From assembly GCA_003971905.1 (NCBI GenBank), contig RSEE01000008.1, positions 682,001-746,000 of the forward strand: a stretch of DNA of 64,000 nt, read 5' to 3'. This document shows positions 9,252 to 55,749 of this stretch, one piece after another (positions within the stretch are counted from its first letter, which is position 1; the number at the start of each line of letters is the position of its first letter). A program made the translations under genes and the position numbers. The stretch is from Moniliella sp. 'wahieum'. Its lineage: Eukaryota. The notes beneath the pieces were generated by a model. It was given only the letters and a program-made list of their open reading frames with translations, searched no databases and had not been told where the DNA came from.

Positions 9252-9895
9252 GTACACCCCAACCTGCAATCTCGTGGCACCTCATCCATCACTCCCGATG
9301 CACTTCATCAATCATCCTGCACCAGCCCCTCTGCCGTTTCCCTTTCTCCAGCCCAAGCTACCTTACCTGTTTGCTTCGGAGCTTCAGTCCCGCGTCGGTA
9401 CTCTATATACACCGCATCTTGCTCTTCATCTTCGTGCGTGATGAACTATAGCTCCGCGCATCCCGCATCACGCATCCTTGTAGGCCCGTACAGACAAGGG
9501 CCCGTATGGTAGGCGTTTCTTTGACGAAGTGGAACAAGGTGAACCGGACCTGGCGCCTCAGACCTCAGAACCCGGCGCGTAGGTTATACTGTTGTACTTG
9601 GAGAGGAGTGCGGCTAAAACTTAAACGTGTGCGTCTCGGCTTCCGCGCCGCCTGTGTTCGGATATTGGCGGGGGCGGAGAAATGTATGACAGCGGACAAG
9701 GCAACGGGTCGGAGTGCCCATCTACCGATCAATCTACCTGCCCTGGGCCGGGTTGCGCCCAGTTGCGCCTGCCCATCTGTAAAGTAGCCTGTCGGAAACC
9801 GGTCGTGACACGTCGGTGCGTGTGAGTACCGAATGCTAAACGACGAAAACAGCAGAGACAAGAACGCATCGGAGTTCCTTGGGCCTGAAGCTGCT

Positions 9896-10025
9896 TGAAG
9901 CTTGAAGCTTGAAGCTTGAAGGGCTTGAAGGTCCTGAATACCTGAAGCTTTGAATCTTTAAGATCTCTCAGATCCCACGCTTCAAGCTTCAAACTGCAAC
10001 GTTCAAGGTACGTTCAAGCTTCAAG
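9896..10025. repeat. Heptamer array cluster (TGA-AGCT)n / (AGCT-TCA)n / ACGT-TCA
   Basis: TGAAGCT x3 at 9896-9916; GCTTCAAGCTTCAA at 9979-9992; ACGT-TCA-AGCT-TCA at 10010-10023. Confidence 0.85.
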
Positions 10026-10605
10026 TTCTTGAAGCTGACAGAAGGGGCCTTGCCCAAAACGGAGTGGGTCAACAAAGCACGTCAGAGAGTCCGCCCCACC
10101 CAGAAACGCATCGCCGGTGCATCCCCCACCTGCTTGCATTGATATCCCCGCACCTGCCACACCCGCCCTTCAGACCCTCTTGAAAACAGCATCGACGGAA
10201 GTACCCCTCAAAAACCCCACATGGCCACTGGGGCAATATGAGCGCTATATTGTGTACTAGTCCGCTGACCCTCAGCCACACCCGGCCGGCAGCAGGGTAG
10301 AAGCCGCGGCGAACCCTAGACCAACCCCTTGGGAACAAGTGAACTGCCGCCAGCGCCTCAGGCGCGGCTGGGCGCGGCCTGGCACCGCGGCTCTCTCGGC
10401 CATTTTGCCTCTTGCAGTACGAAATAGTGACCAATAAATAGGCGGCAGTCCCAGTTGTTTTAGCTCTCGATATGGACTCTCTTTGGAGATAAAAGCCCTC
10501 TCTCGGTGGGCACCTTGGGAGCGAGGGTGAGTATTACCAGCCCCGCCAACTAACCCATCTAATTTTCCGCAACCATCACTCCCGCGGTCTCAATCTCGGA
10601 CGCTG

Positions 10606-12304
10606 ATGGATGTGGAATCCTCTCCTCCAACACAGGAGGAATCCAGCTGTGAGCCCCAATGTCTGTTAGATCGTATGCCCTCACTGTCCTCACATGGGAG
10701 CAGTTCTGGGTCCTCCCTAAATGTGGCCCAAGCCGCGAGCAAAGACAACGAAAAAGAATCGGACATGGCGCCCGTGGTGGTCCAATGGGATGAGGGGGAG
10801 GCGGCCAACCCCCTGAACTGGAACAAGACGTACCGCTGGTTCCTGTCCTATTGGGGCGGGGTGCTTGTTGGGTGCTCCACCTTCATCTCCACTGTGCCAA
10901 ATGGAACCCTGGATGAAATTCTCGCCGAGTTTCACGTCTCGCACGAGGTCGGGGCCTTGATCATCAGCTTGAATGTCTTGGGCTTTGCTGCGGGTCCGTT
11001 GATTTTTGGACCATTGAGCGAGCACGTGGGCAGGAAGCCCGTCTTTCTCCTTTCCACCCTAGGAACTTGTTTGTTTTCCCTTGGCTGCGCCCTCGCCCCT
11101 AACATTGGAGGCCTACTCGTCTGTCGTTTCCTTGGAGGAGTATTTGCCGCTGCCCCGTATGTCTCTACTTCACGGCTCTTGTTCCACCGCAGTAAGCAAT
11201 TAACCATCCCCTCTTTCCTTTCCAGACTCGTTATCTCGGGATCACTGATCGGAGATCTATGGAACCCCATTGGGACTCAGATGATTGGCTACGGGGTCTT
11301 CCCATCGCTTGGGCCCTCGCTCGGGCCTCTGGTCAGTGGGGCAATCTCCGTAACAGGCACCAGTTGGAGGTGGTCATTCTGGGTGGCGACGATGTTCAGT
11401 GGGAGTATGGGCGTTATCGCCGTCTTCTGTGTGAGAGAGACGTATGCTCCCATTCTATTAGTTCAGAAGGCTAAACGGTTACGAAAAGAGTCGCAAACAA
11501 CAGTAACGTATGTAGCACCAATGGAGCTGGTGCCACTCAAACCCAGGGAATTGTTGAGCAAGACGCTTCTCAAGCCTTTTATCATGTTGGTCCAAGAGCC
11601 TATGCTGGTTGGCTGCACACTTTTGTTGAGCTATGCTTTTGGTCTCCTCTACCTCATCTTTGAGTTTTATTCGTCGTACCGGGAAATTTACGGGCTAAAC
11701 CCATTACAAGAGGCGCTATGCTTTCTTCCTTATCTGGTCGGATCCCTCCTCTCCTGCGTCGCATTCTACACGATCGTCGCCCCGCGGTACCAACGCGATC
11801 TGGATGCCGCCAAGGCCAAGGACCCAGACGCCAAGCTTCCTCCCGAAAAGCGATTACCCATTGTACTCGTATGGGCCATGCATGGCTATAAGTTTCTTTT
11901 GGTTCGGCTGGGCCAGTTACAAAAAAGCGTACGGCCCTCTCCCCCCACTCTTTCTCTTCAGAACAAAAGTCTAACCAATGAGACTGATATACAGGACGTT
12001 GTGGGCGCCACTCTTTAGTGGACTGCCACTCGGATTTGGCATTGCAAGTGTCTTTCTGGGCACCATGAATTATCTTGTGGAAACCTACCGTTCCCACAGT
12101 GCGATCGCCCTTGCGGCCCAAACCACGGTTCGGTGTTTGGTAGGCGGCGGGTTCATTCTGTTTGCAAACCAAATGAAGGCGCGCTTGGGAGTTCATTGGG
12201 CGTCCTCCCTGTTGGGCTTTTTGGCACTGCTTCTCACCCCCATCCCGTTTGTTTTGTGGTTGTATGGAGCCAAGCTCCGGTCTTGGTCCAGATTTGCCTT
12301 CTAA
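10606..12304 (+). CDS. MFS drug:H+ antiporter (DHA1 family); introns 11157-11225 and 11929-11994; one apparent frameshift near 11875
   Basis: DHA1 motifs W..D..ANPLNW, GPLIFGPLSEHVGRKPV, RFLGG, GPSLGPLVSG, ETYAPILL..KAKRLRK, PEKRL and PIPFVLWLYGAKLRSWSRF. The introns are GTATGT...CAG and GTACGG...CTAAC...CAG. Confidence 0.92.
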
Positions 12305-12356
12305 CCTTGCGACCACTCACGCCCCCTGGCCCGCATATTACCCTGCTCTTTGGGCT

Positions 12357-12605
12357 TCTATATACCCTGTCGTATTCACCAAATATATGGCAGGAGCTGC
12401 CGCTGTCATATTGAGCGGTTTCTTCATCCCTAATACTCTATTGGGGAGGAAGAGACAATATATTAACCCACTGCATGGGAAAACAGGGAACCTACCCCCC
12501 AAGGGGAAAGATGGGCCAAAGCCCTCTGGCGCGCCTGGGGAAGAAATTGTCGAGGTGAGGGAGGCGAGGAGTGCGCGTAGCACAGCCTCGGACAGGCCCC
12601 ACTAG
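12357..12605 (+). mobile_element. Possible non-autonomous Helitron-like element (about 250 bp)
   Basis: Starts TCTATATAC. Ends with an imperfect GC hairpin CGAGG-A-GTGC-gcgta-GCAC-AG-CCTCG about 11 nt before CTAG|T. The 5' flank is T rather than the canonical A. Confidence 0.4.
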
Positions 12606-12750
12606 TCTTCACCTCTGAGAGACCTGAGATATGAGAGTCGCACCCCGTCGTTGACTCTTTATTATTGTGGCCATCTTCATGTTTTCGTGTATCGGTGCCA
12701 CCACTCTGATGCTCGGGTTTTTGTATTCTAAGCTCTTCATAAGGGGTTTC

Positions 12751-13095
12751 TACTCAGTACTCAGTACGTACTCTTCATTCTCGCCTGCAAGCTTCTGAGT
12801 ATCGGAGTGGATCTGAGGTCTGTGCCGATAAACTAGTACTGCACAACTATGAGCTCCTACTGTAGCCCATATCACATGTCACATGTCAAATCCGATCAGT
12901 ATGTCCTAGTGGCGTGACGCGTGACGTCTGATGATGATGCATGATGCACATGATGGAACCCGTCCATGTGCAGGACCATCGATCATCGACCCGGCCTCAG
13001 GCCTCAGGACTGAGTGTACTCAGGGTACAGCCTGTACTCCGGCTGAGGCCCTGAGGGCCTGAGGCTCAGCCGGAGCAGAGATCTCAGACTGAGAG
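12751..13095. repeat. Dense cluster of TGA/TCA + palindromic-tetramer heptamer repeats (six tetramer types)
   Basis: GTAC-TCA (12751-12767), TCA-CATG (12872-12888), TGA-CGCG (12912-12926), TGA-TGCA (12935-12948), TCGA-TCA-TCGA (12979-12989) and GGCC-TCA (12993-13008). Confidence 0.85.
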
Positions 13096-13261
13096 GTACC
13101 AGCTGTTGTTGGAGTGTGGTGGCATGTGGCACCACTTGGTGTGATGGCTGGATCGGCCATGTCGTTGGCGAGCGGAACTGGCTATAGAGCTCCGCAACTC
13201 GCGCGCTCCGGATTGGTTACCGTCGCGCCCTCGTTCCCCTCCTTCCTTCTCTCCCTGTTGG

Positions 13262-13462
13262 ATTGAAGGTTGGACTAGCGTCAGGAGCTTACAAGAAGCT
13301 ATCTCTGACTGTTCCCACCCTGCACAGGTGAGCTTCCTGTTCTCTCTCTTCCTGTTCTCTTCCTGCTTCTGGCGCTTGTCCTTGTCCATCGGTTGCATTG
13401 AAGGTTGGACTAGCGTCAGGAGCTTACAAGAAGCTATCTCTGACTGTTCCCACCCTGCACAG
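13262..13462 (+). repeat. Perfect 66-nt direct repeat (13262-13327 and 13397-13462), period 135 nt
   Basis: ATTGAAGGTTGGACTAGCGTCAGGAGCTTACAAGAAGCTATCTCTGACTGTTCCCACCCTGCACAG is read twice. Confidence 0.92.
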
Positions 13463-16400
13463 TGCAATCGTCCTTAGCTTGGTAGCGTAGCTACTTCTCA
13501 GTTAACGGACAACCGCGGTTCTGGGCTCTCATTGGTGTGACCGATTCATCGCGCTCACCCATTGATCGCCTAGTCTAGTGCTTCGCCCTAGCCCCCAATC
13601 TTTCAGCTGTTGCTCCGGCGTGGCAACCATGTGTTGTGATATATCGGTGATGTGATGGGTGCGGTATATGTGACACTATACGCCATGCGTCTTGCACTTG
13701 TGACAAAAGCGAATGTGGTTAGTGGGGCCCGGGGTGCACAGATGACATACGGCACCCGCCGACGAGAGACGAGGCGGAGCACAAGGGGCAACGTGCATAA
13801 CATGTAACATGGTAACATGGGGTAAGAGCACTGTTACCATCAGTAAGGCCCTATACTATTGGTCTATACTAACACATTCTATAGCCGGAGAGATCCGTCA
13901 GAGAAATAAATGAGAAGACATAGCCGGGTTGGAGCCCAGAGGTTGGAGATTGGACCAAGCTGAACGCGTTGAACAATGTCGGACAGTGTTGAACAATGTT
14001 GAATGAACTGAGGATCTGAGCCATATATCGATCAACCGCCAAAAACATTGCCCAAAAACGCTCTGATCAGCAGCGCTCTCTGAGGATCGATGACCGACCT
14101 GAAGCCAATGCAACCGGTGTGACTGGTGACTGGCGAACAGAGAGTGTCGTCAGCGCGCCAGCAGCAGCGGCCCCAGCACTCCCAGTGGTGTCGGATCGCT
14201 TACGACTATTAAAGTACGCGGTTTTATATATTAAGAGAGGGTTAGTACTTAGTACGTGTTAATACCCATCACCTTTCCAAGGCTGTTGCAGCCATAATGC
14301 ATTGCATGTAACATGTACCAGGCGATTGCGGCGCTCGTATCGGAGCTCGCATCCTCCGCTGAAAATCGAAGCGTTCATCGCGTTCAGCAAACCTACAGTG
14401 AGTGATGAGACCTGGAGTCCAGATGGTCCTCGAGGGTGATGCAATCGCACTAGTAGTGGTGGTGGTCTAAGCCAACCAGCAACGCCTACAGAGGAACATC
14501 AAGCAGCGAGTCGCCACCAGGGGCTAAGCTGCGGAACAAGGAAAAACAGGAGAGAAAAACAACGGAACTCCTAGGCCTGAAGAGGAACTGAAGGGACATT
14601 GGCCAAAGCACGAGCCACCTGATGGCTCAACAGTGAGTTCATGAAGATCAACAACACATCTCCATCATCGCGTCCAACGCGTTAAAAAGGTGTGTTCAAA
14701 CGTGGTTGGGTACGCGTTTAGAATACCCGACCCACGTTCAAGATTTCAAACGTTCCCTCCGATTTCTGTCCGAGCTCTCAGAACCCTGATTTCAGAGGCA
14801 AGCTTGAACGTTTTAAAAGTTTACCGTTTACCGATTAACGTTTAACTTTTCCGTTTAACCCGTGTGGCGCGCGCCATATATGCATCTGCCGAGCAATATC
14901 CCGCCGTGGCGGGTGGCGCATGGGGAAGAGTGCCGGGGGAGATCGGGGAACGAGACAAAGAGTGGAAACACCTATTTGGTTCTGGGCACATCAACGCATC
15001 ACCGTCACAGGCGTCACTCACGTCACCGGCACGCCGAACATCAGCGTCAAAAGTGTTTGACAAAATGTTGGCGTATCTGTAGCGCTGTGCTTGATACTCA
15101 GTACACTCCATCTGTTGAGATCTGATGGATCTGATGGTGCTGACGCGCCTGACGCGCGCTGCGTCCCAGCTGACCCAACAGCCGACGTCAGCGTCAGAGG
15201 CTCTTGTATTAACCTGGTCCTGCTGGCTTGCCCAGTTGCTCTCGCTCGTGCACCCTGGATGGGATGGGATCGGGGCGAGGGAATTCAAAAGGCTTTGCAA
15301 TGGCCCCAAGCCGAGTAGGCCGGTGCTATATCCAGTTGCATTGTTATGCATGTTACGTTCAATGTTCATGGTAATAATGACGGTGACATTGTGACATAGG
15401 GCAGGACGTGTCACTTTCACTAGATCACTGTACAGCACTGGCCACAACAGTGAAGCTAGTGAAGTAAGAATGGCGAACCTGAGGGGGCCTGGGTGCCCGA
15501 TCTTGGGCAGTCAATACCTGTTCAAGTCAGTGCTGGACTCCTTGAACCCCCTCCTGGTACTACATGAGCATCAAGAAGTGACTGGCCCCAGTACAATAAC
15601 TTGTTCCTTGCCTGGTGGCGGTCCCAACAGCACGCGGGTTGGCCGGTCAAGCTTCAAGCTTCAAGCTCTTCAAAAGCCGCAAGGCCCAAGGCACACCACC
15701 ATACGAAAAGGAGAGGGTAAAACATGCAATAACACTCAGTCTGTGAATCTGAGCTTTTCCAACAAAAGCAGTAATTCTCAGTTGCTGAGATTCAGCATTA
15801 CCTATTACTCAGTTTCTCTCATATTGCATATACGCTCTCGGTACACCCACACACCACGCAGCAACAGTCCTTCGTCAGCAGGCTGGCTGAGCGCGCGCGC
15901 GCGCTGAACGTCTGAGCCGCTGAGTGCTGGAGGCCTGAAGCTCTGAAGCAAGTTGGGGCATGAAGATGACGGGGCAAGATGACCGGGGGGTATGCAAGTG
16001 GCATTAAATATTGAACGCTGAAGCTTGCAGCTTGAAGCTCGAGACGTTGTTGAAGAACGACTGTCAAGCGCAGGCCTTTTATAGACCAGCTTCAGATTCA
16101 GTCAGACGTTCAGTTCTTCTCACACGTTACGCGTTACCGCGGCCTTACTGGGTTACATGTTTACGCGTTACGTACGACACTATAGGCATAATACGATGCC
16201 GTTTGCAATTTGGGATGGGATTGAATGGGGCGGGGAGGCAGTGTGCGGGCCCATTCGGAAGGGGCGACAACAGGGGGCAAGTGTTGTCCTCCTGAGTATG
16301 TGGGCCGGTTAGGCACGGCTGGTGTGGTGGGAGGATGGTGGTCTGTGCGATGGGGCGCCGTGCGTGGGGGCCCCCATGACTCGGATCGCCGGTGGAGGCA

Positions 16401-16579
16401 GAGGTGAAACTGGCGCCGTGCGGCTGTGGGGGGCACACGACCCTTGTGGCCCGCTGTGGCTTTGGCGTTGGAACGGAATGGGTGAGGGGTAGGCCGTAGG
16501 GCAGCGAAGGGACTGCCATAGGGACTTGGGAAGCTAATGATGATAGGAATAGTGAGTAAGAATTGCAGGTGCCATGCAC

Positions 16580-17155
16580 CATGTGACATGTGACATGTAG
16601 CACATGTGGCATGTGGTTGTGAGTACGTGGGTACTGAGAGTACGAGTACTGGGTACTGGGTCCAGTACTGAGCTACTCAGACTGACTTCTCAGAGATCTC
16701 GGATCTCGATCTCATTACTGAGTCTCAGTACCGTGTGAGTTGTGAGTACAGTTCGGTGTTCAGCGCGTTGAACACGTTGAACGTTGAGCACGTTGTTAAT
16801 CGATAATCGATAATCGAATAATCGTTGACCGAACCGTTGCGTACGAGTACACTGGGTACGTTAGGCAGACTGGCTAGAGTGAGGGTGTGACATGTGACAT
16901 GTGACAACAGCGCCCAGTGCACTCGATGGTCGTAGGGCTTGCGTGAGTGTGTGAGTGTGAGCGGCGTATGTGCCGGTTGTTGGCATGGCCGCCGTTTCGG
17001 AGCTCCTTTACTCGATCACTAGTCACTAGGTCACTAGGAATACTGAGGTCTGAGGCTCAGACCACCGGGCACCGGTCAGCCGGTCAGGCCTGAGCCTCAG
17101 GCCCAGGCCACAGTGCCTCAGTGCCTCAGTGAACGTTCAGGCGTGCAGGCCTGAG
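16580..17155. repeat. Second dense heptamer cluster, upstream of the C2H2 gene
   Basis: CATG-TGA (16580-16597 and 16888-16906), ACGT-TGA (16774-16787), TAA-TCGA x3 (16797-16817), TCGA-TCA-CTAG-TCA-CTAG (17012-17029), CCGG-TCA-GGCC-TGA (17080-17093) and TGA-ACGT-TCA (17130-17139). Confidence 0.85.
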
Positions 17156-17262
17156 ACCATGGTAGCTAGGAAAGCCTCGTCGAAAACAAGCCAAGCGAAA
17201 CAGCGCCGAGTGGCGGTGTCCGCCGGGAAGGTGACTAGCGCTGGTCAGTGCCCGCCCGGCAA

Positions 17263-21532: not shown

Positions 21533-21628
21533 GGTCGATTAGCTCAGTTGGTCAGAGCGTGGTACTAATAGGTCCAGCTTGGAGTGTTGGTGATGCCAAG
21601 GTCATGAGTTCAAGCCTCATATTGACCA
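21533..21628 (+). tRNA. tRNA-Ile(AAT) with 22-nt intron (21571-21592)
   Basis: Acceptor stem GGTCGAT/ATTGACC; D arm GCTC..GAGC; anticodon stem TGGTA/TGCCA with loop CT-AAT-A^A; T arm ATGAG-TTCAAGC-CTCAT; discriminator A. Confidence 0.95.
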
Positions 21629-26789: not shown

Positions 26790-28685
26790 CGGATGCCCCG
26801 GCGAAGGAAGGATTGGAGAAGGTGGTGTGGAGGAGAGAGGCTGGGCTGCCGTGTGGTGCTGCGTTGCTGCTCCACTCTGCTCCGCCTGGCCTGCCGCTGC
26901 CGCTGCCCTGCCTCCGCACCGCGCCTGGCCGCTGCTGGGCGCGCACGGCATGCGAGGCTTGGCGCCAGTCTGCTGCATCCCCCCTCACTGCCGCCCCGTG
27001 CCCCCGCCCGGCACAGCAGGGGGCGCACTCCCAGGCCATGCAAGCTTCCCTCTCCCCGCAGACACGCTGACGTAACTTGCTGGTTTGTGTCTCTGCCCAT
27101 CGTTTTTGTAGCTACGACCGGCTCCGTGACTACCGTTGGCCTGCCAGATACTACCGTGGCATATCGGCATCGAAAAGAAGAAATTGATCTCCTCTGGATC
27201 TGATTCTTTGAAGATTGATGCCTCTGCCCCTCCCGCCGGATTCTACCGAGGCAGCCCTGGCCCGGTTGTGTCTGCTGTGTGGGCGACCGAACACAGAGAC
27301 TCTCGTTGTCGCAATCGCGCTGATCACAAAAAGTCTCGTCTCTCTGGCGGAGGGCAGGATGAAGCACTGCTCAGCCTTATCCGGGCGAACAACTTCACAC
27401 CAGGGTGGTGCAAGCAAAAACATGCTCACAAGTTCGTCATGGTTAGCTGTGATCTCTTATTTTTGGCATACCAAAGATATCGACACATAGATCAGCTCGG
27501 GGGGAGGACTCAGTAGTCGGTGGAACGTCTGTTGTCGTCAGTATCCAAAACGTTTCCATCGATCGGCGATAGTATACCTTCCTCTGCCTCGGCCCCAAGC
27601 GCTGCCCTCTGTCTCCCTATCGTCTTGATCACTGCTGTCTGCCGCCTACCTTTTTTATTGTTATACCTCTCAAAAGGAAAGAATCGAGACTAACGAACGA
27701 GACATCCACACACCCTACTATATTCCCTCCCCCATTTTGAGCATATCTGCGCATTACACGCTTGTCCGCAAGAACAACGGTCGTGATTAATACACAAGTC
27801 GCTGGCTGTTCTCTCTCATCATGTGGAAAAGCAATTTAATCCCTCAAATTGGCAGGCATATAATACACATCTCACCTGCATCATACCTCATTGTGCCAAG
27901 GCCTCTGTAAAAAGGGAAATGGCGAGATAATCGTATTGCCGATAATCGATAACCGGCCGGTAGCCACCGATCATTGATAACAAGCATCGTCGATACTCAG
28001 TAACTCAGTACTCAATAGCTATATCTAGCCTCTTATAGCATAGCATAGCAAAGCCAGTATATTTGACTGTGACATGTGTCGCAGCGAAATAAGAGAAAGA
28101 ATGCCAAGACGATGTCATGCAAATGAGGCAGAGGGGCGTGTGTACATAACCGGTGCCAATCACTTTGGGCTGGGCAAGTATAGTTCCTGGCAGGCGCAGG
28201 ACCAGTCTCGAACACTGATTCGGGGAATTAATCGCACACCGCCCCCGTGGCTGCGCGGCCTTAATGCATTGCGAGCGCCGCTGGGCGCGAGCATCTCAGC
28301 ACACTGGCCAGATGCAGATGGCAGGGGTTCACACTGTCACGCATGTCACATGTCACAGCATTCAGCCAAGACGTGTGGTTCATGTTCTTCCCGCAAGTGC
28401 GGGGTTGAGAATAGTGCGACAAGAATAGGCTCTTGGCGTGTCTGGGACCAGCATATGTCAACCACCCTTGATAGGATATCCCGCTTCGGTGATCCGCGGA
28501 GAAGTGTTAACGCCAAGCCTGTGTCTCCCGGAATTCGGCACTCGTCGAGGATGTGGACCATCGACGTCGCCCTCGACCGTGAGCATACGACAGGATATAA
28601 AGGCCCTTGCTTCTCTCTGCAATTCTCACCTGCAATCCCCATCTCGCATGCAGCAACTTGTGCTCGTTAGCTCATTTTGCCCAGT

Positions 28686-35283: not shown

Positions 35284-36550
35284 AATGGCGTTGGTGGGGG
35301 GCCAAGAAGAAACGGGCGGAGGGGCGAGGGCAAGGAAGGCAGCCCGCCAGAAGAGGGGGGGGGGTGAGTGGTGAGGCTGAAGAAGGTGGTGCCAGATGTA
35401 AGAGGTGAGGGTCAGTGAGAGGGCGCTTTTAGCCAGTGCTCCCGGCCAGCCAGGCCAGTGCCCGCCACTCCTGCGCCCCCCTGCGAGCGAGCGAGCCGCG
35501 ACAGTGGCCGCGCTGCTGCCACCCTGCAGCGGGCAGCAGGCCAGTCGCGCAAGGGGAGCGCAGCCCGCGCCAGCAGGCCAGTGTGTGTGCAGTCGCCGGC
35601 GCCCAGGTGCGATGCGCCTCTGGCGCCGCCCGTGGTTGCGCGCATCATGCATGGTGCATGATGCATGCAAGGAGACAGGTGACATGCATGACATGTGGCA
35701 TGGACAGGCGGCAGATGTGGCAGATCCCCGACGGATGCATGTCAGCCCTACACTGGCGCCATGCGGGCTACGCGCTGTCGCCCAGCCACAACGCCCTCAG
35801 TCCTTGGCCAACCTCCAAGTCACGGGTCCGGCCAAGCCCCCGCCCAACCAACGGCGACCCCAGTGCTGGCTACCCCTGCGACGCCCTGCTACCCCACGCC
35901 TACTATCCCCCGTTTGGCCAGGGCGGCGCATGGCGCAGTGCACGCCACATTTGGCCACTTGCCTTGTGCCCGCAGCGATGGCTGCGTAGCAGGCCACCCC
36001 ATCCATCCATCCATCGCTGCTACCCGATCCAACGTGGAACGTGCAACGGTGGAACCAGTCCGCCTGATCTGCGTCTCCGTTGGGGACCATTGCGGAGCCC
36101 ATTCGGCCACTTGACTAGCTTGACTTGCAGATTGGCGTGGTCGTTCAGCTGAACGTTCACCTTGAACAGTCACTAGTCAGCACTGGTCAGCAATATGAAT
36201 CTGGCATGCCACATGGAGTGTTGGTGGACCCTTTGTCCATCCACGAAGCGTAAACGAGAGGCTTCCGAAAGGAGGACCAAACCATGCTGGTTGATGAGGG
36301 GTGAGGCCGAGGTGAGGCCGGTGAGGCCGGTGAGGTCCGATGTAGCAGATGGAATATGGATGCATGGCCGATGGCCAAAACAAGGCCTATCAAGAAGGGT
36401 CTCCGGTCTGCCCAGGAGTCGACTCCCAATCGCGCACTGGGTCCGACGCCCAATCGGCCACCTATAGCGGGCTTGGCAGATCCAGCGGTCCCCGCTACAG
36501 TTCCGTGATCCTGTGATCTGCCCCACGTTCCACGCGCCCGCGTGGGGTCG

Positions 36551-36785
36551 ATGCATGATGCATGGTGCATGGTGCATGATGCACTTTGCATCAGTAACTA
36601 GTAACTCAGTATACAGCTCTGCCCCTACTGTGCCTGCAACTGCATGGGCCAGTCTCTTCAACAGCTTCAAGAGCCTCCAAGTCAACAACGTGCAAGCTGC
36701 TTCAAGCTTCAAGCTTCAAGACGTTCAACCTCCTGGCAGTACATCGCACAGGAACGTCGCCCACATCAGGGCCTCAGGCCTCACC
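36551..36785. repeat. Heptamer cluster (TGCA-TGA, TAA-CTAG, TCA-AGCT, GGCC-TCA)
   Basis: TGCA-TGA-TGCA at 36552; TAA-CTAG-TAA at 36595; TCAAGCT x2 + TCAAG at 36702-36720; GGCC-TCA-GGCC-TCA at 36770-36783. Confidence 0.8.
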
Positions 36786-37129
36786 CCACTAGCTCCACTG
36801 CTTACATGCTAACGCATTACTCCCATTGCTCGCCACGTGTCCGCAACGACCAACAATATATCTACACAATCACAAAGATGGGGGGGGGCAACCAGAAGTG
36901 CGGCACAGACGAAGGGTACAAGTACACGAGTACAACGGAAAATACGACCCAAGTCGGCAAAAGCTAGCGAAGTGGGGACCAGAAAAGCGGTGACGCGGTG
37001 ACGCTCGAAGCAGGAGGCATGAGGCCTGACGAGGGGGGCGGGGGGGAGGGCAACAGAAACAAGGTGCAGGCAACCTAAGGCAAAGGGGCAAACCCCGAAG
37101 CCAAGGGATGCGAAAGCATCGACGCAGAC

Positions 37130-38293
37130 TTAGTGGGCAGCTGTACATACCAAAGCAAAACACAAACACACACAAAAGGCCACGGGCCGGGGGAAAAGCA
37201 TCGAGAAGCCACCTAGGATCAGCGTTCGGGAAAAGGACAAAACAAGCGCAGAGGTAGGAGGTAAACTTGCCCAGGTATCTTTGTACGTGTCAACAGGACA
37301 CTCCCAGCAAGTTGGGAGGGGTGCAACGGACGCAGCACCGGGCTGGGGCTTGAAATCACGGGTCGGGGGGCGAGAGAAAGAGTCGGCGAGGCCAAGCATC
37401 TCGGGAGAGCTGCTCAGTTCCCCTTCTTGATTTTGACGTCCACCGTACAAGTGGAAGGGGGCGTCCGAGCACGTCCTAGAGTCCGCCGGAGTGTAGAACG
37501 GCAGAGCAGCCGACGCGGGTGGTGTAGGCACCGAGGTTGTCGAGCGCTGCGACATGGCACCCGGACTCAGGGGGCTTGTTTCGCCTCACACCCATGCCCA
37601 GCTCGCGAGAAGTGACCGACGGCATCGAGACCAAATCAATCTCGGCAAATGCCCAGAGGTGCCAGTGGGAGGGCGCGGGAAAGTGACGGGGCATGCTTGC
37701 AAGACATCTTGCCCCAACGCAAGGCTGGGCTGAGGATGAGCTTGAACCTGGCGGGAGTCCGAGGGCATCATACCATGGGAGTGGGGAGCGGGGTTGGGTT
37801 GAGACTGAGAAAGCTCCTGGGGCTGAGACTGAGACTGGGGTTGAGGCTGAGAGACTGAGGCTGAGGCTGAAGTTGAGAGGAGGCCGCCCCTGAGGTTGGT
37901 CCTGCGCTTGCAGTGGTGCAATAAGAGGACCGTCAGCAGAGGCAAAAGCGAATTGAGCAGCCTCGAGCTGGGCCAAGTCGCCCTGGTGGGCGAGAGAAGG
38001 CAGCGTTCGACAAGCGAGCGCAGGTGAGCGTTTTCACGCCGGACAAGGTAGTTGTCCACCTCGATCTGGGTCAGGTGGGCGGGGGAAGAAGAGTCCGGAG
38101 AGCGTTCCCGGGCTCGCTGAAGGTCAAGCTGCAGCTGCTCGATTTGGCATTTGAGCTCGCTATTCTCGGCGGTGAGCTGCTCCAGTTGGATCTTCCTCCG
38201 GTCGCGGAAGCGTGCGACGGCCTGGGCGTTCTTGGACCGTTGGCGGGGCGGGACGGGTTCCTGCGAGGTGCGTTTGGGCGAAGAAGCAGGCAT
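37130..38293 (-). CDS. bZIP transcription factor; frameshifted; 3' end uncertain
   Basis: Basic region RQRSKNAQAVARFRDRRK (N-x7-R) followed by the leucine heptad LEQLTAENSELKCQIEQLQLDL; ATG at 38293. Confidence 0.78.
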
Positions 38294-38889
38294 GGTGCGG
38301 GCTAGAGAGAGGCCAAGGACGAGAAGGCGAAGAGGGAGGGGTGGTAGCAAGCAGCAAACGGGGCAGGGCGCAGGGGGCGGAGCGTGCTACGCGGGGATCT
38401 TATACCGCTGCCGCAGCAGCTGCAGCGCCCTCGATCGAGCTGGGCGGGGGAGAGGGTGACACTGGGTTTGTGCCTGGCCTCGCTGGTCCGGGTGGGCCCT
38501 GGCGCACATGCCTCCTGCCTCCTCCCAGTGGCCGAGCCAGCTCCGGGCAGCACAGCGGCACTGTTCGGGCGGCGTGGGCGGAGCGGCAGGGGAAGCGCAG
38601 GGCTGCGCAGGCAGCAGGGCACTAGCACCAGCAGCCCACCGGGGTGTGCTCAGCCCACTGCGTGTGGTGCCCTTGAGCAGGTATTCCGAGTGGAGCACAG
38701 GGGAAGTTTGGGGGGCCACAGGCGCCGTGCGGGGGACAATCGCGCTGGACTATGGTTTGGGCTGGGCTGGACTGGGCTGGCCGGCATGCCGTGCGGTGCG
38801 GGGGCAGCGCCACACCTGCCGGCGCCACTTGCCCGGGCCTTCCCTCGGCCCACGCGCCCCGTCTGTCGTCGGCGACTGAAGGCCACCGG

Positions 38890-39520
38890 CAGTACTCAGT
38901 TAACTACTCGCTGCTCCGATGCAGGCACCAGTACTCCACCAGTACTCCAAATACTCCGCCAATACTCCCGTACTCAGTACTCAGTATGCACTAGCCACCT
39001 AGTCACTAGCCACTCCCTCCTCTGCACGCGCTAGTCACTAGCTCGCGCTCACTTGTCCCTGCCACTAGTGACTCGCTGCGCTGAGGCTAATCTCGATCGC
39101 CGCCGTGCCAAAGCAGTCAATTCTAAAGCACACCATTCCCCAGACCAGCTGTGACAAATGTGATGCCAGTGATAAGGTTGTGGTTCAAAGACAGCGGAGC
39201 ACACGGTACCCGGGGGTCGGTGTCCTGAGTATGAGTACCGACGGAGCAGCGCAAACGTGCAACCGCACATCAGGCGGAGCGCCAGTGACTAGTGACTTCT
39301 GTGATACGCGGAACGCAAAACGCGGAACGACGCGGAACCGATCGGTCTAGCTCTTGTTGAACGTTGAAGCTGTTGAAGCTTGAACATTAAACATTGAACA
39401 TTGAACGTTGAACGTTCACGCGTTCACGTTGAAAGTTGAAAGCTAAGCCTTAGCGCTAAACATGAAACGCAAACGTTAAATTGGTACACGCTAAACGTTA
39501 AACGTTAAACGTTAAAAACA
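38890..39520. repeat. Heptamer clusters upstream of the bZIP gene (GTAC, CTAG, ACGT/ACAT)
   Basis: GTAC-TCA-GTAC-TCA near 38970; CTAG-TCA-CTAG near 38999 and 39031; TGA-CTAG-TGA near 39286; TGA-ACAT-TGA-ACGT-TGA-ACGT-TCA near 39395-39418; TAAACGT x3 at 39492-39512. Confidence 0.85.
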
Positions 39521-40212
39521 TCTTGACCGGGTACTTCAAGGCGGTGTACGATTGGGCATACATGGTGTTGGGCAGTGCGGCCCACGCGGTGTTGGGACCC
39601 GTGGTCCCGTACTTAGGCCAAGGTGCCTCATCACCCTTCACCCCTGATTTGTCCTCCGAAGCCTCCACGTGTATACTCAGGCTTGTTTGAACCCCTGTCT
39701 CTAGGTGTGGCACAAGGCTTAGACCTGAACCACCACCATCGCGATTGCATTGCTCTACACTTCCAGAGGTTCTTCACCCAACCCCTTGGGTTCCTCCGGT
39801 CTTACACGCGGACCGCGGAGAGACTGCATCACGCACAACACAGCCATTCACCGAGTGTGACATGTGACATGTGATGTTGTGATGCATGATGGGCGACATG
39901 TGATTCATCCATCGACGCCTCTCTCGGTGCTACTTTCGGCCTTTCTTTCAGCATCCAATGCCCAAGCCGATCTGTTCCGGCTCCTACACGCTACCTGAGG
40001 CCCAGGCTCTGAGGCTGGAGGCCGGAGGCCTGACGAGTGACGAGTGGCTCGTGACGTGTGACGAGTGATATAGGCAAATGTGAGATGCATGTGAGATCGT
40101 GAAATATGTGATGTGAGATGGGTGATTAATGGTTCTCGATTCTGGGCTGCGAATGTGATTTGAGTGAAGTAGCGCAGGGCAACAACGCTCTGCTTTCGGC
40201 TGCTTTCGCCCA

Positions 40213-40466
40213 TCTAAACTATATAAATTTGGGGCGTTTTTTCCTGACCCCAGCACAAGATTATGTGGTAAGCGTCCCACCCGCCACGTTCCAGTCCGCC
40301 CGCGGCTGCACATGGGTGATAAAATTCCGCCCAAGGCGTAGTGGGGAATACCATTCCGCTCTCCAGCGTGGAACGGTGGCTAAGGTGGCGAGCAAGGAAC
40401 AAGCACCACGCACCAAGCTGGGGCGAAGCCCCAGCTGACCGGGCCGTAGGCCCGGTGGTCTTCTAG
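40213..40466 (+). mobile_element. Non-autonomous Helitron (254 bp)
   Basis: 5' end A|TCTAAACTATATAAA. 3' end has two perfect hairpins, AGCTGGGGC-GAA-GCCCCAGCT (40416-40436) and ACCGGGCC-GTA-GGCCCGGT (40438-40456), then CTAG|T. Inserted in an AT dinucleotide with no target-site duplication. Confidence 0.78.
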
Positions 40467-41745
40467 TCATAGTAATAGCATAGCAGCGCATAGCCCCCCC
40501 CCACGTTCTCAGGCGGGCGTGTGGCAAAAAAACACCCACAGACCAAATTAAACTTTCGGGGCCAACGGAACCTTATCCGTCGGTTGCCTTTTCGGAAAGC
40601 GAACATCAGGAAAAAGTCGTAAAAGTGCCACAATAGAGTGCAATGCATACACCCACACCAGCACGTCCAACACCAGCTTTCCCTTCTGTATCCCTATGTG
40701 TTCTTGTCCCCCATGTACCGAGCCCCGTGGTGCATGGTTCGGACGTCGGCGTTATAAATATTGAATGCCCCCCACGATCCGTCGGGACGCTATTTCCAGG
40801 ACAGCGCCCCCCCCCCTGTTGACTGTTTCTTTTGGCACTGTGCAACCCCACATCAGGCAACCGCTCGCAGCACAAACAACAATCAGCTATATCCAGATGG
40901 TACCAGGTGGTATCTCTTCTCTGGAGCTGGTGCTGATGCAACTAATGTCGGAGGGTAAGTAACAGCTTACCGGCAGTTACCGACGGTTGCCAGTTATAGC
41001 GGTTATATCTCTAGTCTCTTTATATTAACAGCAGTTATACTAGCGGGTTGATCTAGTTACCAATTACTTATGGCTTCAACCTTCAAGCTGGTCTTTCTAC
41101 CGGATGCCTCTCTCGTACGAAATGTGGCCACAAATGGCTTCAGAGACCCTCCTTTAGCTGAAAGAATGAGGGCGAGGGCAAAAGAATACACTGGGCGATC
41201 ATCAATGGGTGTGAGCACGATAAAGTGGTCACACCAACGGGAGCCCAGAACCGCGGTTGTCCGTTATAACTGAGAAGTAGGGCTACCGTACGCTAATAGT
41301 ACCAAGCTAAGGACGATTGCACTGTGCAAGGGAAGATAGGAAACAGTCAGAGATAGCTTCTTGTAAAAGCTCATGACACTAGTCCGACCTTGTGTGCAAT
41401 AACAGGGAGAGAAGAAAGAGAGGGGAAGGAGGCGCGCAAGGGATAACCAGCCCGGGCGCATGAGAAGCGAAACAATGAGAAGACTTCCGCATACCAGTGG
41501 CTTGGCTGCAAAAGCCAATGACATGTGAGTGCATGATGAGGCCATACTCTAACATTAGCTCCATATTAGTACACACTGCTAAGATCCAAGGGCTGTTGAC
41601 TGAATACTGAATGAACTACGTTGGAAGAAGTCACAGAGTGTACATATATGAGTGCAGTCTTGTATTCAATGGGGCGAGAAAAGGGCATATGGAAGAGGGC
41701 AAGGGGGTAGGCAATGCAAGTGGGAAAGAACGGGGGGGGGGGAAT

Positions 41746-43461
41746 TCATGCACATGGTAGGCGTGAGGGCAGACTTTTTTTGCTAAACTGGTTTTCCGAG
41801 TTGTACGAGCCCATGGCCGCCGTCGACGACACGCCGCCCGTGACGGTTTTGAGGAGCGAGTCGACGTAGCTGGCGCCGGACCATTTTTGGTGGGTAAGCG
41901 TGTCGGTGCCCAGCTCGCGCTCCTTGCGCTGGACAATCTCGACGTACGCCTTCATCCCCTCGGTGGCAAAGTTCTTGGCAAACAGGTCGGAAATGTACGC
42001 GTCGGTGTGCAGGCCAGCAAGCGTGATGAACTGGAAGATGAACCCGAGCTTGCCCAGGTCCCATACGTAGTCTTTCATCTGCGACGTGTTGAGGCCAGCG
42101 GCGTCCCAGTTGAACGAAGGCGAAAGGTTGTAGGCGAGCCACTGATGGGGCACGGCAGCATGCACCCCATCGGCAAACTCCTTAGCTTGGGCATAGATGG
42201 GCGACTTGGTCTCCATCCAGATCAGGTCAGCGTAAGGGCTAAAGGCGATGGCACGGTTGATCGCGCACTGCGTGCCGCCCTGGTAGCGGTAGTAGCCTTC
42301 CCGCGTCCGCGGGGCGTCCCAGTCCCAGAAAAAGTCCGTCACGCCATACTTGGCCGCCAGAGCGCGGGCAGCATGGTTCGACAGCCCCTTGGCCTCGGCC
42401 TGGAACTTGGCTGCATCCCCTCCCTTGGCCTTGATTGCATCTGCCACGGCGTCCCCAAACAGTTTGAGCCCAGCAGCAGCCACCCAGTCGTCCTCGACTT
42501 TTTGCAGAGCATCTCCCGACGCGCCAGCGGCCTCGGCACGGTTCATGACCGTAACCAGCGGTTCGAGTGCGGCGTTGGTGGAACCAATGATGAACGCATG
42601 GTCGCGTTCGTCAATGTTGGATGTGATGAGCGTGGCTGCCTCCGAGTCGGTCCGAGCGACGGCAATGTTGTCGACGCCCATAATGTCGTACTGGAAACGG
42701 ATGGCGATCAGACGGTTGATGTGCTCCTGGATCGGCACCAGCACCTTGCCTGCCATGTGCCCACACTTTTTCGTACCGGGCGCCTGGTCCTCAATGTGGA
42801 TCCCGGCCGCGCCTTTCTCAACAAAGAGCTTGGTCAGCTTCACTGCTGTCAATCCACCATGGCCCGTGTCGGCGTCGGCGACAATGGGGCGGAGGTAGTC
42901 GGTGTAGGGTGTGTTGGCACGCTGCTCAGGTGTCAAGCCAGAGCGCGCTTCGCGCTGCTTGCGGTCATGGAAGAGCTGGGCCATAAAGAGATGCTCAACC
43001 TTGTTGGGAACCGTGTTGTACGGGTAGTCAGCCAGGTCGGGACCGGGCTCGTTCGTCGAGCTGGCGGTCGAAGACGATTGCCATCCCGACACATACACCG
43101 CCTCGAGGTACTTGGCCATCTGGGTGATCTGGACCGGGTCCAGCGCGCCATAGGTGTGCGACGGCGTCTTGTTGGCCCAGTGCTGTTCGAGCAGGCCCCA
43201 CAACTTTTTGGCCTGGACATTGGAAGGGTATTCGATCGGGATGGTACCACGCTTGGAAACAACCGGCGGCTGTGTAGGGCCGCTTGGTATGCGCAAAGCG
43301 GGACGACTAGAGGTGAGAAGGGCACAAAGAGGTCAGTGGAACTCCCCAGCGGCAGGAGGCGGGATAGGAAGGCGCGGCCGCCAACATACCTGCCACCACT
43401 GCTCGACAGCGTTCACTTCAGCGTCAAAGATGCGTTGCTCAGCGTCGGAGGAAATGCCCAT
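41746..43461 (-). CDS. ICL1: Isocitrate lyase; intron 43307-43389; one frameshift near 43265
   Basis: [57 protein letters not shown], active-site [20 protein letters not shown] and [11 protein letters not shown]. Confidence 0.95.
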
Positions 43462-44784
43462 GGTGGAAGCGGAAATGGTGGGAGGGTGGGGTGGGAGGTG
43501 GAGGGAGAGCAGTACGAAACGATGGGGGCTGGCGAGAGGGGGATTTAATACGATTGATTGCCCAGCGGTGGGAAGCAACGGATGGAGATGCTGATGACAG
43601 AGCTCTCAGGCTGAGATCTGAGACGGTGGTGCGGGGGGGGGGGTTGCACCGAGTGGGCGGGTGCTGGCTTGGGTCGGCGCAAGCGGATTTGGGCGCTGGG
43701 CTGGGCAGGGTGCCCAGGCCGGGAGACAGTCAGCGTGTCTGGCGTGTCTGGGGGTATGGGAGCGTATGGGAGAGTATGGGAGGGTACAGGGTGGTGCGTG
43801 GTGGTGTCCGGTGCTGCAGCCTCGCTTGGCCCGGCCGGGATGGAGTGTGGATATTGAGGCAGAGCGTAGTGGTGGAGGCTTAGCGCTCGAATGAGCCGCT
43901 GAACGTTCACACGTTCACCGTTACCGCGTTACCGCGCGTCGACGTCGTCAACGTTCAACGTGGCCACAGCCGCCGCTTTCACTTGCGGGGTCTTGCAAGC
44001 CCCGCATTCCCCGCACTGGCTCATTTGGTGCTGCGGATGCCGGCTGGTGCGGACGCGCATGGAGCCGGATGGCAGTTGCCTGCCGCTGCACAACGAGCCC
44101 CCGGTGCAGCGCCCATAATAGACGTAGTAGCCTCATTGGGGGTTCTTCCCCCGCTAAAACCGCCAGCGTCCGGCGCAGACGAAGCTGCTGCGGAGTTGAC
44201 GGAAATGCCCATTCGGTGCACGCCCTGCCTAGCTGCCCGCTCTCCTAAGCGGTAAGCGATGGGATCGACCCAAGGGAGCCGGGACGGCAGTCTGAACGCA
44301 TCGATCCAAGGCGTATATAAAAGCTCCTGGACGGTAACCGATAGGCCCCCGCAGATGCCGGCGAGTGACGTAATAGGCCGCCCACACCCGCAACCGGAAG
44401 GTGCCGGAAGGGCCGAGGCTGGCTGCTGGTGAAATTGTGAAACGTTGGCTGAGGCGCACCAGATAGATCTTCGATTGGATATTGATATTGAGATCTGAGA
44501 GGCCCAGCATCCTGCTTGGCGCCTGCTCGTCCCGGCCGGGTGGCCCCGGAAAGACGCGGGTGGGGCCGGCGGGGCACTGGAGGGCGCTGGGCCGACTGAC
44601 GCTGCCCAGGGTGGATGCATCATGCCAGTCCCTGATATTATTCGCTCAATCGAGCGCATCCCCCCGGCACTTCCCCTCATCTGTATAGTGGCCACATATG
44701 CATGCACTCTACATCGCATCTGCTGCCCCTCGTACTCCCGTTCGTCTCCAGCATCATTGCGCTTCCCCTCCTCTGTCCGTGTTC

Positions 44785-47264: not shown

Positions 47265-47356
47265 AGAGGATAGAGGGATAGAGGGATAGAGGGATGGAGG
47301 ATGGAGGGATGGAGGGATGGAGGGATGGAGGGATGGAGGGATGGAGGGATGGAGGG
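47265..47356. repeat. Octamer microsatellite (RGAGGGAT)n just 3' of the kinase gene
   Basis: AGAGGGAT units grading into GGAGGGAT units. Confidence 0.9.
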
Positions 47357-47396
47357 GCAGAGAGGTGGAAGGAGATGGGGGGAGGGGAATAGGGGA

Positions 47397-49181: not shown

Positions 49182-50066
49182 GCCGGCGAGGCGGTGGCGG
49201 GGGAGCGAGCCGAGGCCGTGGCCGGGGGTGGGGCTGGGGGCGCGAGGAGAGGGAGCCTTCGGTCTCGCTGTCGCTCAGCAGGGCGGCGGCCTTGGAGTCG
49301 CGCTCCCAGCCGGGGGGGCGGGCAGGCGGAGGGGGAGGGGGGCATGGCGGGGGGGGGGGGGGGGGCAGAGGAGGCGGAGAGGGGAGGGAAGAGCGGAGGG
49401 AAGAGGACGGGCGGAGGAGCGGAGGAGAGACGAGCACGGGACACAGGCAGCAGCCGCACGAAGAGCAGCAGGGCGCTAGAGGATGCGCACAGCGCCCATC
49501 GCCTTCCGACGGCGGCGAGAAGAGGGCAGTGGGGGTGAGGTGAGGTGGGCGGGTGGTGGCTGCGGGGGCAGGCAGGCCGGCGCAGCAGGCTGGGCTGCCT
49601 GCCGTGCGTCTCCGGCCCACCAGGCGGCACCACCGCTGAGCCAGCGCAGCGACCGGTGATCCGAGCCAGCACCGCGCCGCAGCCAGCCGCCCACACTGGC
49701 CCCGTGCGGGCGCTCCGCTGGCTTCGGCCTCCCACCGACGGCTGCATCATGCTCACCCATGGGCGATCACGCGCCGCCTTGAAATTGCATCTGGCGTCGG
49801 CGCATCGGCTGACTGGCATCAACCGACCAGCGTGACAAACGACACCCCCCCCCCCACACTCGCCGCCTGCCCCCTGCCTCTGCCGCCAGCACCATCCAGG
49901 GTCACGTGCTCTCATCCCATCCCATCCCGTGTCCCAACCACAGTCTACCCAATCCGCATCCGCAGCAACACCCTGCCCCCAAATTCTGTCTCGCACTGCA
50001 TGCATCTCGCCTGGACGGCCGCGTCTTCGTCGGCCCAGCCAGCCAGCCGTTGCATCCTCTCCTGGC

Positions 50067-55131: not shown

Positions 55132-55749
55132 TGTGGGAGGCAGGCGGGCAGGCGGGCGGAACGGGCGGAAGACGGGACGGCGGCGGCGGGTGTGGTGGGA
55201 GAGACCGAGGTGTGGATGGCTGCGTGCTTGGCCGACCAGCGGGGCGGAGGGAGAGATGAGGACGATGGGGACCGATGACGCTGAGCGCTGATGCATGATG
55301 CATGCGCACGGCACAGCACATCGCTCATCGCTGATCGCTGCCGATGACGCGGATGACGCCGCAGCCAGCGTTCCAAGTGTGCTGACCTCAGCGCGCAGCG
55401 CTCTGGTGGGGGCACGCGTCACGCGCAGCACAGCACTCTGCCGCGGGCCAGCACCGAACCACCTAAATCCCGCCACTTGGGCTGCAGCTGCACCTGCTGC
55501 ACCCCGCCTGCTGCGGGCCCTGGCCGCCTGCCCGCAGCCGCGGGCAGCCGCATGCCAGCCAGGGGGTCGCAGCAGCAGACCGGCGCAGACAGCTCAGCCG
55601 CTGGGCGCTTGGACGTATGTGGGCGTTGCCCACGGCTGGTTCCGCCTCCCGTACTTCGGAACTCAGACGAGTACGCTCAGACGTTTAGGCCTGAGCCTCA
55701 GGTGAAGTTCCAAGCTTGATGCATGATGCCTGATGTATGATAGCTTGAG

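Follow-up and report, generated by a model that had tools for sequence, protein, structure and literature searches.

In the 64-kb stretch of DNA analysed here, referred to below as the window, TNA triplets and 4-bp palindromes form a lattice with a 7-nt period that obeys a pairwise rule: each TNA attracts a palindrome to its left and, independently, to its right, and this rule fully accounts for the chimeric chains in which one palindrome is followed in phase by a different one. The useful result on these chains is a negative one, as they add no information beyond the pairwise association of TNA and palindrome, and interest shifts away from the junctions to the rule itself and to the cores built on one and the same palindrome. 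As the generator of the lattice, we tentatively propose a TNA-anchored insertion of 7 nt, made up of five copied and two inverted bases and left as a scar of hairpin repair, with subsequent amplification by slippage (probability about 0.45).

The unit grammar and its islands

Products encoded by the open reading frames (ORFs) of the window include a Hobbit/FMP27 protein, Mog1, an MFS transporter, a P-type ATPase, a GH16 glucanase, isocitrate lyase, protein kinases and ribosomal protein L2. Isocitrate lyase finds its best named relatives in Tilletiaria anomala (80%), Parajaminaea (79%) and Malassezia equina (78%), and the GH16 protein in Violaceomyces, Parajaminaea and Meira (about 45% each), so that, judged by these two proteins, the source organism is an Exobasidiomycetes-like member of the smut subphylum. 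The single match in an Rfam search of the window is an intron-containing tRNA gene (21533-21628, plus strand; 52.5 bits), for which ARAGORN gave no anticodon and which sits in the divergent gap upstream of a DUF726 gene.

Head-to-tail exact copies of one unit, as in short tandem repeats, form 57 arrays with a period of 7 (4.35 in third-order Markov simulations), 21 with a period of 8 (0.8 simulated) and 8 with a period of 9 (0.25 simulated), and periods of 10-13 yield 0 or 1 each. In 32 of the 57 period-7 arrays, the unit consists of a 4-bp palindrome and a TNA triplet (TGA/TCA in 26 arrays, TAA/TTA in 6), with ten different palindromes in use, and 33 of the 57 units show maximal circular self-complementarity, a property of 11% of random 7-mers from the window. 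With exact tandem copies counted only once, palindromic tetramers of non-coding DNA are followed by TGA or TCA 181 times, compared with 68.5 expected from non-palindromic tetramers with the same final dinucleotide, and when all 256 tetramers are ranked by their enrichment after TGA/TCA, six of the top seven are palindromic. This enrichment amounts to 2.1- to 4.5-fold for eight palindromes of mixed composition and GGCC; it is absent for CGCG, GCGC, CCGG and the four all-A/T palindromes. Non-coding TGA triplets are preceded by a palindrome in 20% and followed by one in 23% of cases, at a background palindrome density of 7.3%. Palindrome richness in general is only modest and accounted for by the arrays.

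The triplets on the two sides of a palindrome are oriented directly in 50 cases and flipped (TGA-P-TCA or TCA-P-TGA) in 6, and 40 of 58 pairs of neighbouring units agree in orientation, even when the spacing is no multiple of 7. This direct bias shows that the units stem from duplication rather than from independent sites. The flips of triplet orientation pointed out in the first-pass annotation do exist, as seen in the 10-bp palindrome TGAACGTTCA at 17130, 36150 and 43900, but they are rare; a fourth copy of this palindrome, additional to the three reported, lies at 39409. Two other descriptions of the grammar were ruled out. A unit composed of a 6-bp palindrome of the form A-NNNN-T and one further base is at odds with the near-independence of the palindrome flanks (119 observed, 104 expected). 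A stop-codon barrier is at odds with the position of TAG, which falls outside the top 15 triplets after palindromes while TTA falls inside, and also with the lack of a strand bias relative to the downstream gene (85 vs 97).

Nine strings had been quoted as instances of the pattern, and all nine are present where they were reported. The focal island (16580..17155) occupies an untranscribed-looking spacer upstream of a plus-strand ORF that starts near 17248. TRF and an exact-array search detected arrays of CATG-TGA, GTAC-TGA/TGG, GATC-TCG, ACGT-TGA, TCGA-TAA, CATG-TGA, CTAG-TCA, CCGG-TCAG and GCCTCAGT in this island, and 47% of its 576 bp fall into direct repeats of at least 5 nt at a distance of 7-9, compared with 9.3% for the whole window. 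The plus-strand segment 17012..17038 opens with a TCGA-TCA-CTAG hetero-junction (quoted as TCGA-TCA-CTAG-TCA-CTAG at 17012), which is followed by (TCACTAG)x2 and then by 8-nt copies (GTCACTAG). Further downstream, the plus-strand string CCGG-TCAG-CCGG-TCA-GGCC-TGA-GCC-TCA-GGCC (17072..17110), from which CCGG-TCA-GGCC-TGA had been quoted at 17080, combines a tetramer switch with an orientation flip and includes the 13-nt odd palindrome CCTGAG-C-CTCAGG, and one of the four copies of TGAACGTTCA occupies 17130..17139. Dispersed composite repeats were also considered: the 29-nt pairs 17073-17101 / 55674-55702 and 16585-16613 / 35674-35702 (86% identity) lack longer homology in their surroundings and lie within chance for a restricted vocabulary.

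Comparable islands are spread over the window. The one upstream of the MFS transporter gene (9870..10040) carries (GCTTGAA)x4.1 on its left and (GCTTCAA)-type units on its right and contains the hetero-junction ACGT-TCA-AGCT at 10010, quoted as ACGT-TCA-AGCT-TCA. At 12740..13080, arrays of GTAC-TCA, CATG-TCA, CGCG-TGA, TGCA-TGA, TCGA-TCA, GGCC-TCA and CTGAGGCC adjoin each other, and at 15643..15667 (plus strand) CCGG is continued in phase by (TCAAGCT)x3.0, the source of the string CCGG-TCA-AGCT-TCA-AGCT quoted at 15643. The divergent promoter gap between the GH16 and P-type ATPase genes (27940..28360) contains TAA-TCGA-TAA-CCGG (27943), (ACTCAGTA)x2 and (CATGTCA)x2.3, and the island at 36540..36790 is composed of TGCA-TGA/TGG, CTAG-TAA, AGCT-TCA x3.1 and GGCC-TCA arrays. 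In the largest island (38920..40100), we found arrays of GTAC-TCA, CTAG-TCA/TGA, ACGT-TGA/TAA, AGCT-TGA and CATG-TGA; the entire gap around it (38342-41784) holds 12 TNA-palindrome-TNA cores. The promoter side of the isocitrate lyase gene (43730..43965) shows TGAACGTTCA, (ACGTTCAC)x2, (CGTTACCG)x2.2 and (TCAACGT)x2. Finally, the plus-strand hetero-chain GC-TGA-GCGC-TGA-TGCA-TGA-TGCA-TG, quoted in part as TGA-GCGC-TGA-TGCA-TGA-TGCA at 55282, extends from 55274 to 55304.

Several other features of the window deserve mention. The minus-strand ORF 37586-38386, which adjoins the largest island, gives weak, sub-threshold Pfam matches to bZIP (bZIP_2, E=0.0013; bZIP_Maf, E=0.0017). Nearly 5 kb without coding signal separate the MFS transporter gene from the next ORF (12278-17247); this stretch contains 22 of the 66 TNA-palindrome-TNA cores, and none of the 23 ORF translations overlapping it has a Pfam match. 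Within it, an 84-nt segment occurs in two copies (13244-13327 and 13379-13462) that are 135 bp apart, show 93% identity and end in ...CCCTGCACAG; it could represent a duplicated intron-exon boundary or a small RNA feature. Between 44000 and 56000, the G+C content is higher (0.59-0.70 vs about 0.55 elsewhere), and TNA-palindrome arrays are fewer. Purine-rich sequences outside the TNA-palindrome grammar comprise a (GGATGGAG)n repeat of about 11 copies in the convergent gap beside a kinase gene and long G-rich tracts upstream of it (segments 47268-47383 and 49312-49440).

Location of the cores and candidate regulatory sites

On an approximate gene map, derived from a rough codon-usage model trained on Pfam-supported ORFs, promoter-containing gaps (20,087 bp in total) hold 59 of the 66 cores, or about 3 per kb. 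Convergent 3'-3' gaps (5,648 bp) hold none (P=4.5e-7), and the remaining 7 cores lie in the other 38,265 bp, which are mostly coding. The distances of the cores from the downstream start range from 231 to 4493 bp. In the five tandem gaps, the last 230 bp before the downstream start are free of cores, and only 1 of 50 cores falls within 470 bp of the end of the upstream gene, positions that fit a confinement to untranscribed spacer.

The restriction of the cores to promoter-containing gaps, with few of them in the mostly coding rest, speaks for a reading in which the islands are cis-regulatory clusters, with 7-bp near-palindromes (CTT-S-AAG, TGT-S-ACA, GTT-S-AAC and others) as candidate sites for dimeric transcription factors, sites that duplication would have multiplied and selection retained. 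In line with this idea, words recur across promoters with variable spacing and in degenerate variants, as exemplified by CTTGAAG/CTTCAAG near 9.9, 15.6, 16.0, 36.7, 39.4 and 51.9 kb, and TGAACGTTCA, which matches the form nGAAnnTTCn of a heat-shock element dimer, is present four times. However, one grammar serves at least ten palindromes, and the variable yet symmetric flanks are better explained by copying than by recognition through a protein. At its centre, a symmetric site would be expected to take G and C equally, yet direct triplets far outnumber flipped ones. The lack of strand bias relative to the downstream gene also argues against such sites, and with nearly half of the focal island in repeats, the pattern is too dense for ordinary ones. 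Moreover, the core is unlike the sites of bZIP proteins of the AP-1/CRE type. Their consensus, TGA(C/G)TCA, resembles the units of the window in being a 7-bp odd palindrome with a G or C centre that contains TGA/TCA, whereas the centre in the window is T-S-A (NN-T-S-A-NN), the outer bases are variable and the triplets are direct (50 vs 6) rather than arranged as inverted half-sites, so that AP-1/CRE sites were rejected. Overall, we consider an origin of the islands as clusters of regulatory sites improbable.

In-phase palindrome switches

Junctions of the type palindrome-TNA-palindrome number 74 in the window, with the same tetramer on both sides in 43 and different ones in 31; for TGA/TCA alone, the figures are 34 and 25, respectively. 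The first-pass annotation had suggested a count of hetero-junctions against the expectation from the local density of palindromes, and measured against this null they are in excess. When we counted palindromes followed by TGA or TCA and then by a different palindrome d bases on, d=7 gave 25 cases, whereas 80 control offsets between 8 and 100, with multiples of 7 excluded, gave a mean of 13.5 (sd 3.8, maximum 24), corresponding to an approximately 1.85-fold excess (Poisson P=0.003). Yet the answer depends on the null that is chosen. If the two sides of a triplet are treated as independent, 29.4 hetero-junctions would be expected for TGA/TCA (25 seen) and 8.2 for TAA/TTA (6 seen), and same-palindrome junctions are in strong excess (34 seen, 3.0 expected). 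Switches in phase are as frequent as the product of the one-sided tendencies, and therefore no chain-level process is needed.

The stronger reading of the first-pass annotation was that a process adds units one by one and chooses different palindromes, such that the chimeric chains would themselves be the product. Apart from the excess over local palindrome density, this idea can draw on two complete different units standing in phase (8 cases vs 1.6 at control offsets) and on the chain at 55274-55304, which fits stepwise addition. It is opposed by the independence of the two TSA sides, which predicts as many hetero-junctions as were seen or more, and by the 55 same-palindrome chains, whose in-phase edges carry a different palindrome at 11 of 88 positions (6.7 expected, P=0.07). 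In addition, different-palindrome pairs at a distance of 7, with all triplets pooled, are not enriched, their number (220) falling inside the range of 208-268 obtained for distances of 4 to 24. A builder of mixed chains is thus disfavoured and, in our view, very unlikely. What stands of the earlier interpretation is that the triplet-plus-palindrome pattern itself is favoured, as reflected in the excess of palindromes before TGA/TCA and in the ranking of tetramers; what falls is the notion that in-phase chimeric chains give evidence of a chain-level process. The accompanying suggestion of "modular addition" in 7-nt steps is a good description of the proposed repair-scar mechanism, on which the hetero-junction count is neutral.

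Proposed repair scars, slippage and related systems

According to the mechanism that we propose, a break at TNA would be repaired with a stereotyped gain of 7 nt (TNAxy -> TNAxy-y'x'-TNAxy), made up of a direct copy of five bases and an inverted copy of the last two of these. The same product would be expected from a 5-bp target duplication combined with two P-nucleotides of a hairpin opened off-centre, and cut-and-paste elements that form hairpins on the flanking DNA do leave such scars. Since the palindrome would be written from whichever dinucleotide follows the TNA, many different palindromes would occur, and since each event would yield a new TNA, arrays would grow in 7-nt steps. An event of opposite orientation would write a palindrome from the other flank, again in phase. 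Slippage and point mutation would then copy and degrade the units, yielding the 8- and 9-nt periods and the TGG variants.

Consistent with this mechanism, 5-nt direct repeats at a distance of 7 have a spacer that is the inverted copy of their last two bases in 34 of 49 cases starting with TGA, 31 of 42 with TCA, 9 of 12 with TTA and 8 of 13 with TAA, compared with a chance value of 1/16 and with at most 5/14 for other trinucleotides. The TNA-started repeats thus have the inverted bases expected of P-nucleotides in a hairpin footprint. A 5-nt direct repeat starting with TNA, with 82 instances counting both strands, is the commonest reading, but many cores belong to longer arrays. In 60 of the 66 cores, one side has a flank that matches over 2 nt or more, and 6 lack such a flank; among cores with exactly two extra matches, these are one-sided in 8 and split 1+1 in 1. 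Two alternative insertions were ruled out on the basis of the flanks: a 3-bp TNA duplication plus four bases of an element end, because 60 of the 66 cores have palindrome-matching flanks, and a 7-bp symmetric duplication, because the (2,2) flank class comprises only 2 of the 66 cores.

Repair scars would not suffice on their own. In seven isolated cores, two units stand as exact copies (T-P-T-P), an arrangement that one "5+2" event would give only if the palindrome had pre-existed, requiring an extra assumption. In non-coding DNA, direct repeats at a spacing of 7 exceed their expected number most at six matched bases (36 vs about 6) and not at five (33 vs about 15), and exact two-copy arrays also exist for units without TNA (CATGTGG, GTACTGG). 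These three observations imply that slippage must contribute too. Two events of opposite orientation should leave T-P1-T-P2, a structure that occurs three times, but hetero-chains rarely fit it fully: of those described here, only the hetero-chain at 55274..55304 has flanks that fit two "5 copied + 2 inverted" events of opposite orientation at one TGA. A further point against the scar mechanism is that it leaves the uneven use of palindromes unexplained, with CGCG, GCGC, CCGG and the all-A/T palindromes lacking enrichment.

Given the contribution of slippage, it needs to be considered whether hairpin-assisted replication slippage alone, with no site-specific break, could generate the lattice. 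A palindrome, three bases and a second copy of the palindrome make the smallest stable hairpin, with a 4-bp stem and a 3-nt loop, and the order of the periods (7 > 8 > 9) corresponds to a 4-bp stem with a loop of 3 to 5 nt. All seven arrays of at least 3.0 copies belong to the 32 palindrome-TNA arrays and none to the 25 others (Fisher P=0.015), and mutated units have been copied exactly (CATGTGG x2, GTACTGG x2.3). When single-strand DNA was folded in stretches of 100 nt, three of five islands were more stable than shuffled sequences (mean z -1.1 to -1.9), with z near 0 in three convergent gaps and two coding stretches (mean z +0.22 to -0.51). However, the remaining two islands fold no better than shuffles, and the enrichment of mixed palindromes does not extend to the strongest stems (CGCG, GCGC, CCGG). 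Moreover, slippage leaves unexplained the requirement for T-N-A in the loop, the complete lack of cores in convergent 3' gaps and the structures of less than two copies in which the spacer is an inverted copy of the preceding two bases. We therefore regard slippage without a preceding break as rather unlikely.

If the scars are real, they may be written continually by a TNA-anchored, hairpin-forming DNA-breaking activity that is specific to untranscribed promoter spacers of this fungal lineage, a possibility that we consider conceivable but doubtful. Such an activity could come from a Transib-like or other cut-and-paste element or from a host nuclease derived from one. No transposase was identified by Pfam among the 112 ORF translations scanned in the window, and a terminal TNA duplication was found for none of its 532 inverted-repeat pairs. 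The hAT elements have the target consensus nTnnnnAn (T-NNNN-A), which differs from the A-NNNN-T units of the window, with TNA between the palindromes, and does not fit a TNA-plus-two target. Transib is, according to PMC1131882, the eukaryotic DNA transposon superfamily with 5-bp duplications, which would correspond to the 5-nt direct repeat of the window, but its targets are GC-rich, unlike the TNA anchor; among fungi, soybean rust was its only known source in 2005. Transib is not known to use a TNA-plus-two target. PMC5499845 describes hAT, Transib, MULE and RAG as leaving hairpins on the flanking DNA; these are opened by enzymes of the host and then sealed by end joining, and a footprint stays behind. 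Hairpin-type footprints (hAT: Ac/Ds and Hermes; Transib/RAG; MULE Muta1) have in common with the window a short direct duplication and a few inverted (P-type) bases at the joint. Duplications of hAT or MULE length (8, or 9 bp or more) are not found at the putative scars, and, as a difference from excision footprints, the scars of the window would form dense arrays, with about 3 in each kb of spacer on the promoter side.

Tandem repeats in yeast promoters, which Vinces et al. reportedly described in 2009 as mostly AT-rich and without a common grammar, are likewise short, tandem and promoter-concentrated; the window adds to this a period of 7 and a unit of TNA and a 4-bp palindrome. A literature search, with subscription journals outside its coverage, returned no description of such a lattice, which is apparently undescribed and would be filed with promoter tandem repeats and footprint-like microduplications. 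Bacterial heptanucleotide repeats, including cyanobacterial STRR and the GGGAATC repeats of Xanthomonas (PMC4692102), share the 7-nt period, the intergenic location and the frequent occurrence in inverted pairs near promoters, but they use one unit per long array, unlike the multi-palindrome lattice of the window.

When metagenomes were scanned for the commonest array (19 nt), an estimated 1200 stretches were obtained, of which 120 loci were fetched (534 kb, 27-70% G+C). None of these 120 loci contains tandem TGA/TCA units on two different G/C-containing palindromes, and cores other than those on CATG and the four all-A/T palindromes are 16 times rarer than in the window (5.4 vs 86 per 100 kb). 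Two loci carry long heptamer arrays whose units switch in phase by single bases, from TGTGACC to TGTGACA to TGCGACG in L086 (280-425) and from ACAGATC to ACAGGTC to ACATGTC in L108 (15-201); in-phase switching is therefore common in ordinary heptamer satellites. In three other contigs (L011 8215-8370, L059 2530-2703 and L117 145-320), (TGTGACA)n and (TGTCACA)n bracket an AT-rich spacer of the TATATAT type just upstream of a gene, an arrangement that looks like a conserved inverted heptamer-repeat module, apparently of bacterial origin.

The implications differ between the readings. Should the lattice be functional, it would constitute a new promoter code. If it is a repair scar instead, the genome would carry the record of thousands of identical breaks and repairs, all within promoter spacers. 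It would then serve as a natural experiment in which regulatory DNA arises through a single mutational mechanism, and it would point to a nuclease or transposon with a TNA target. Provided that a TNA-anchored breaking activity is indeed at work, one stereotyped repair event would keep creating and rearranging the promoter DNA of this organism.
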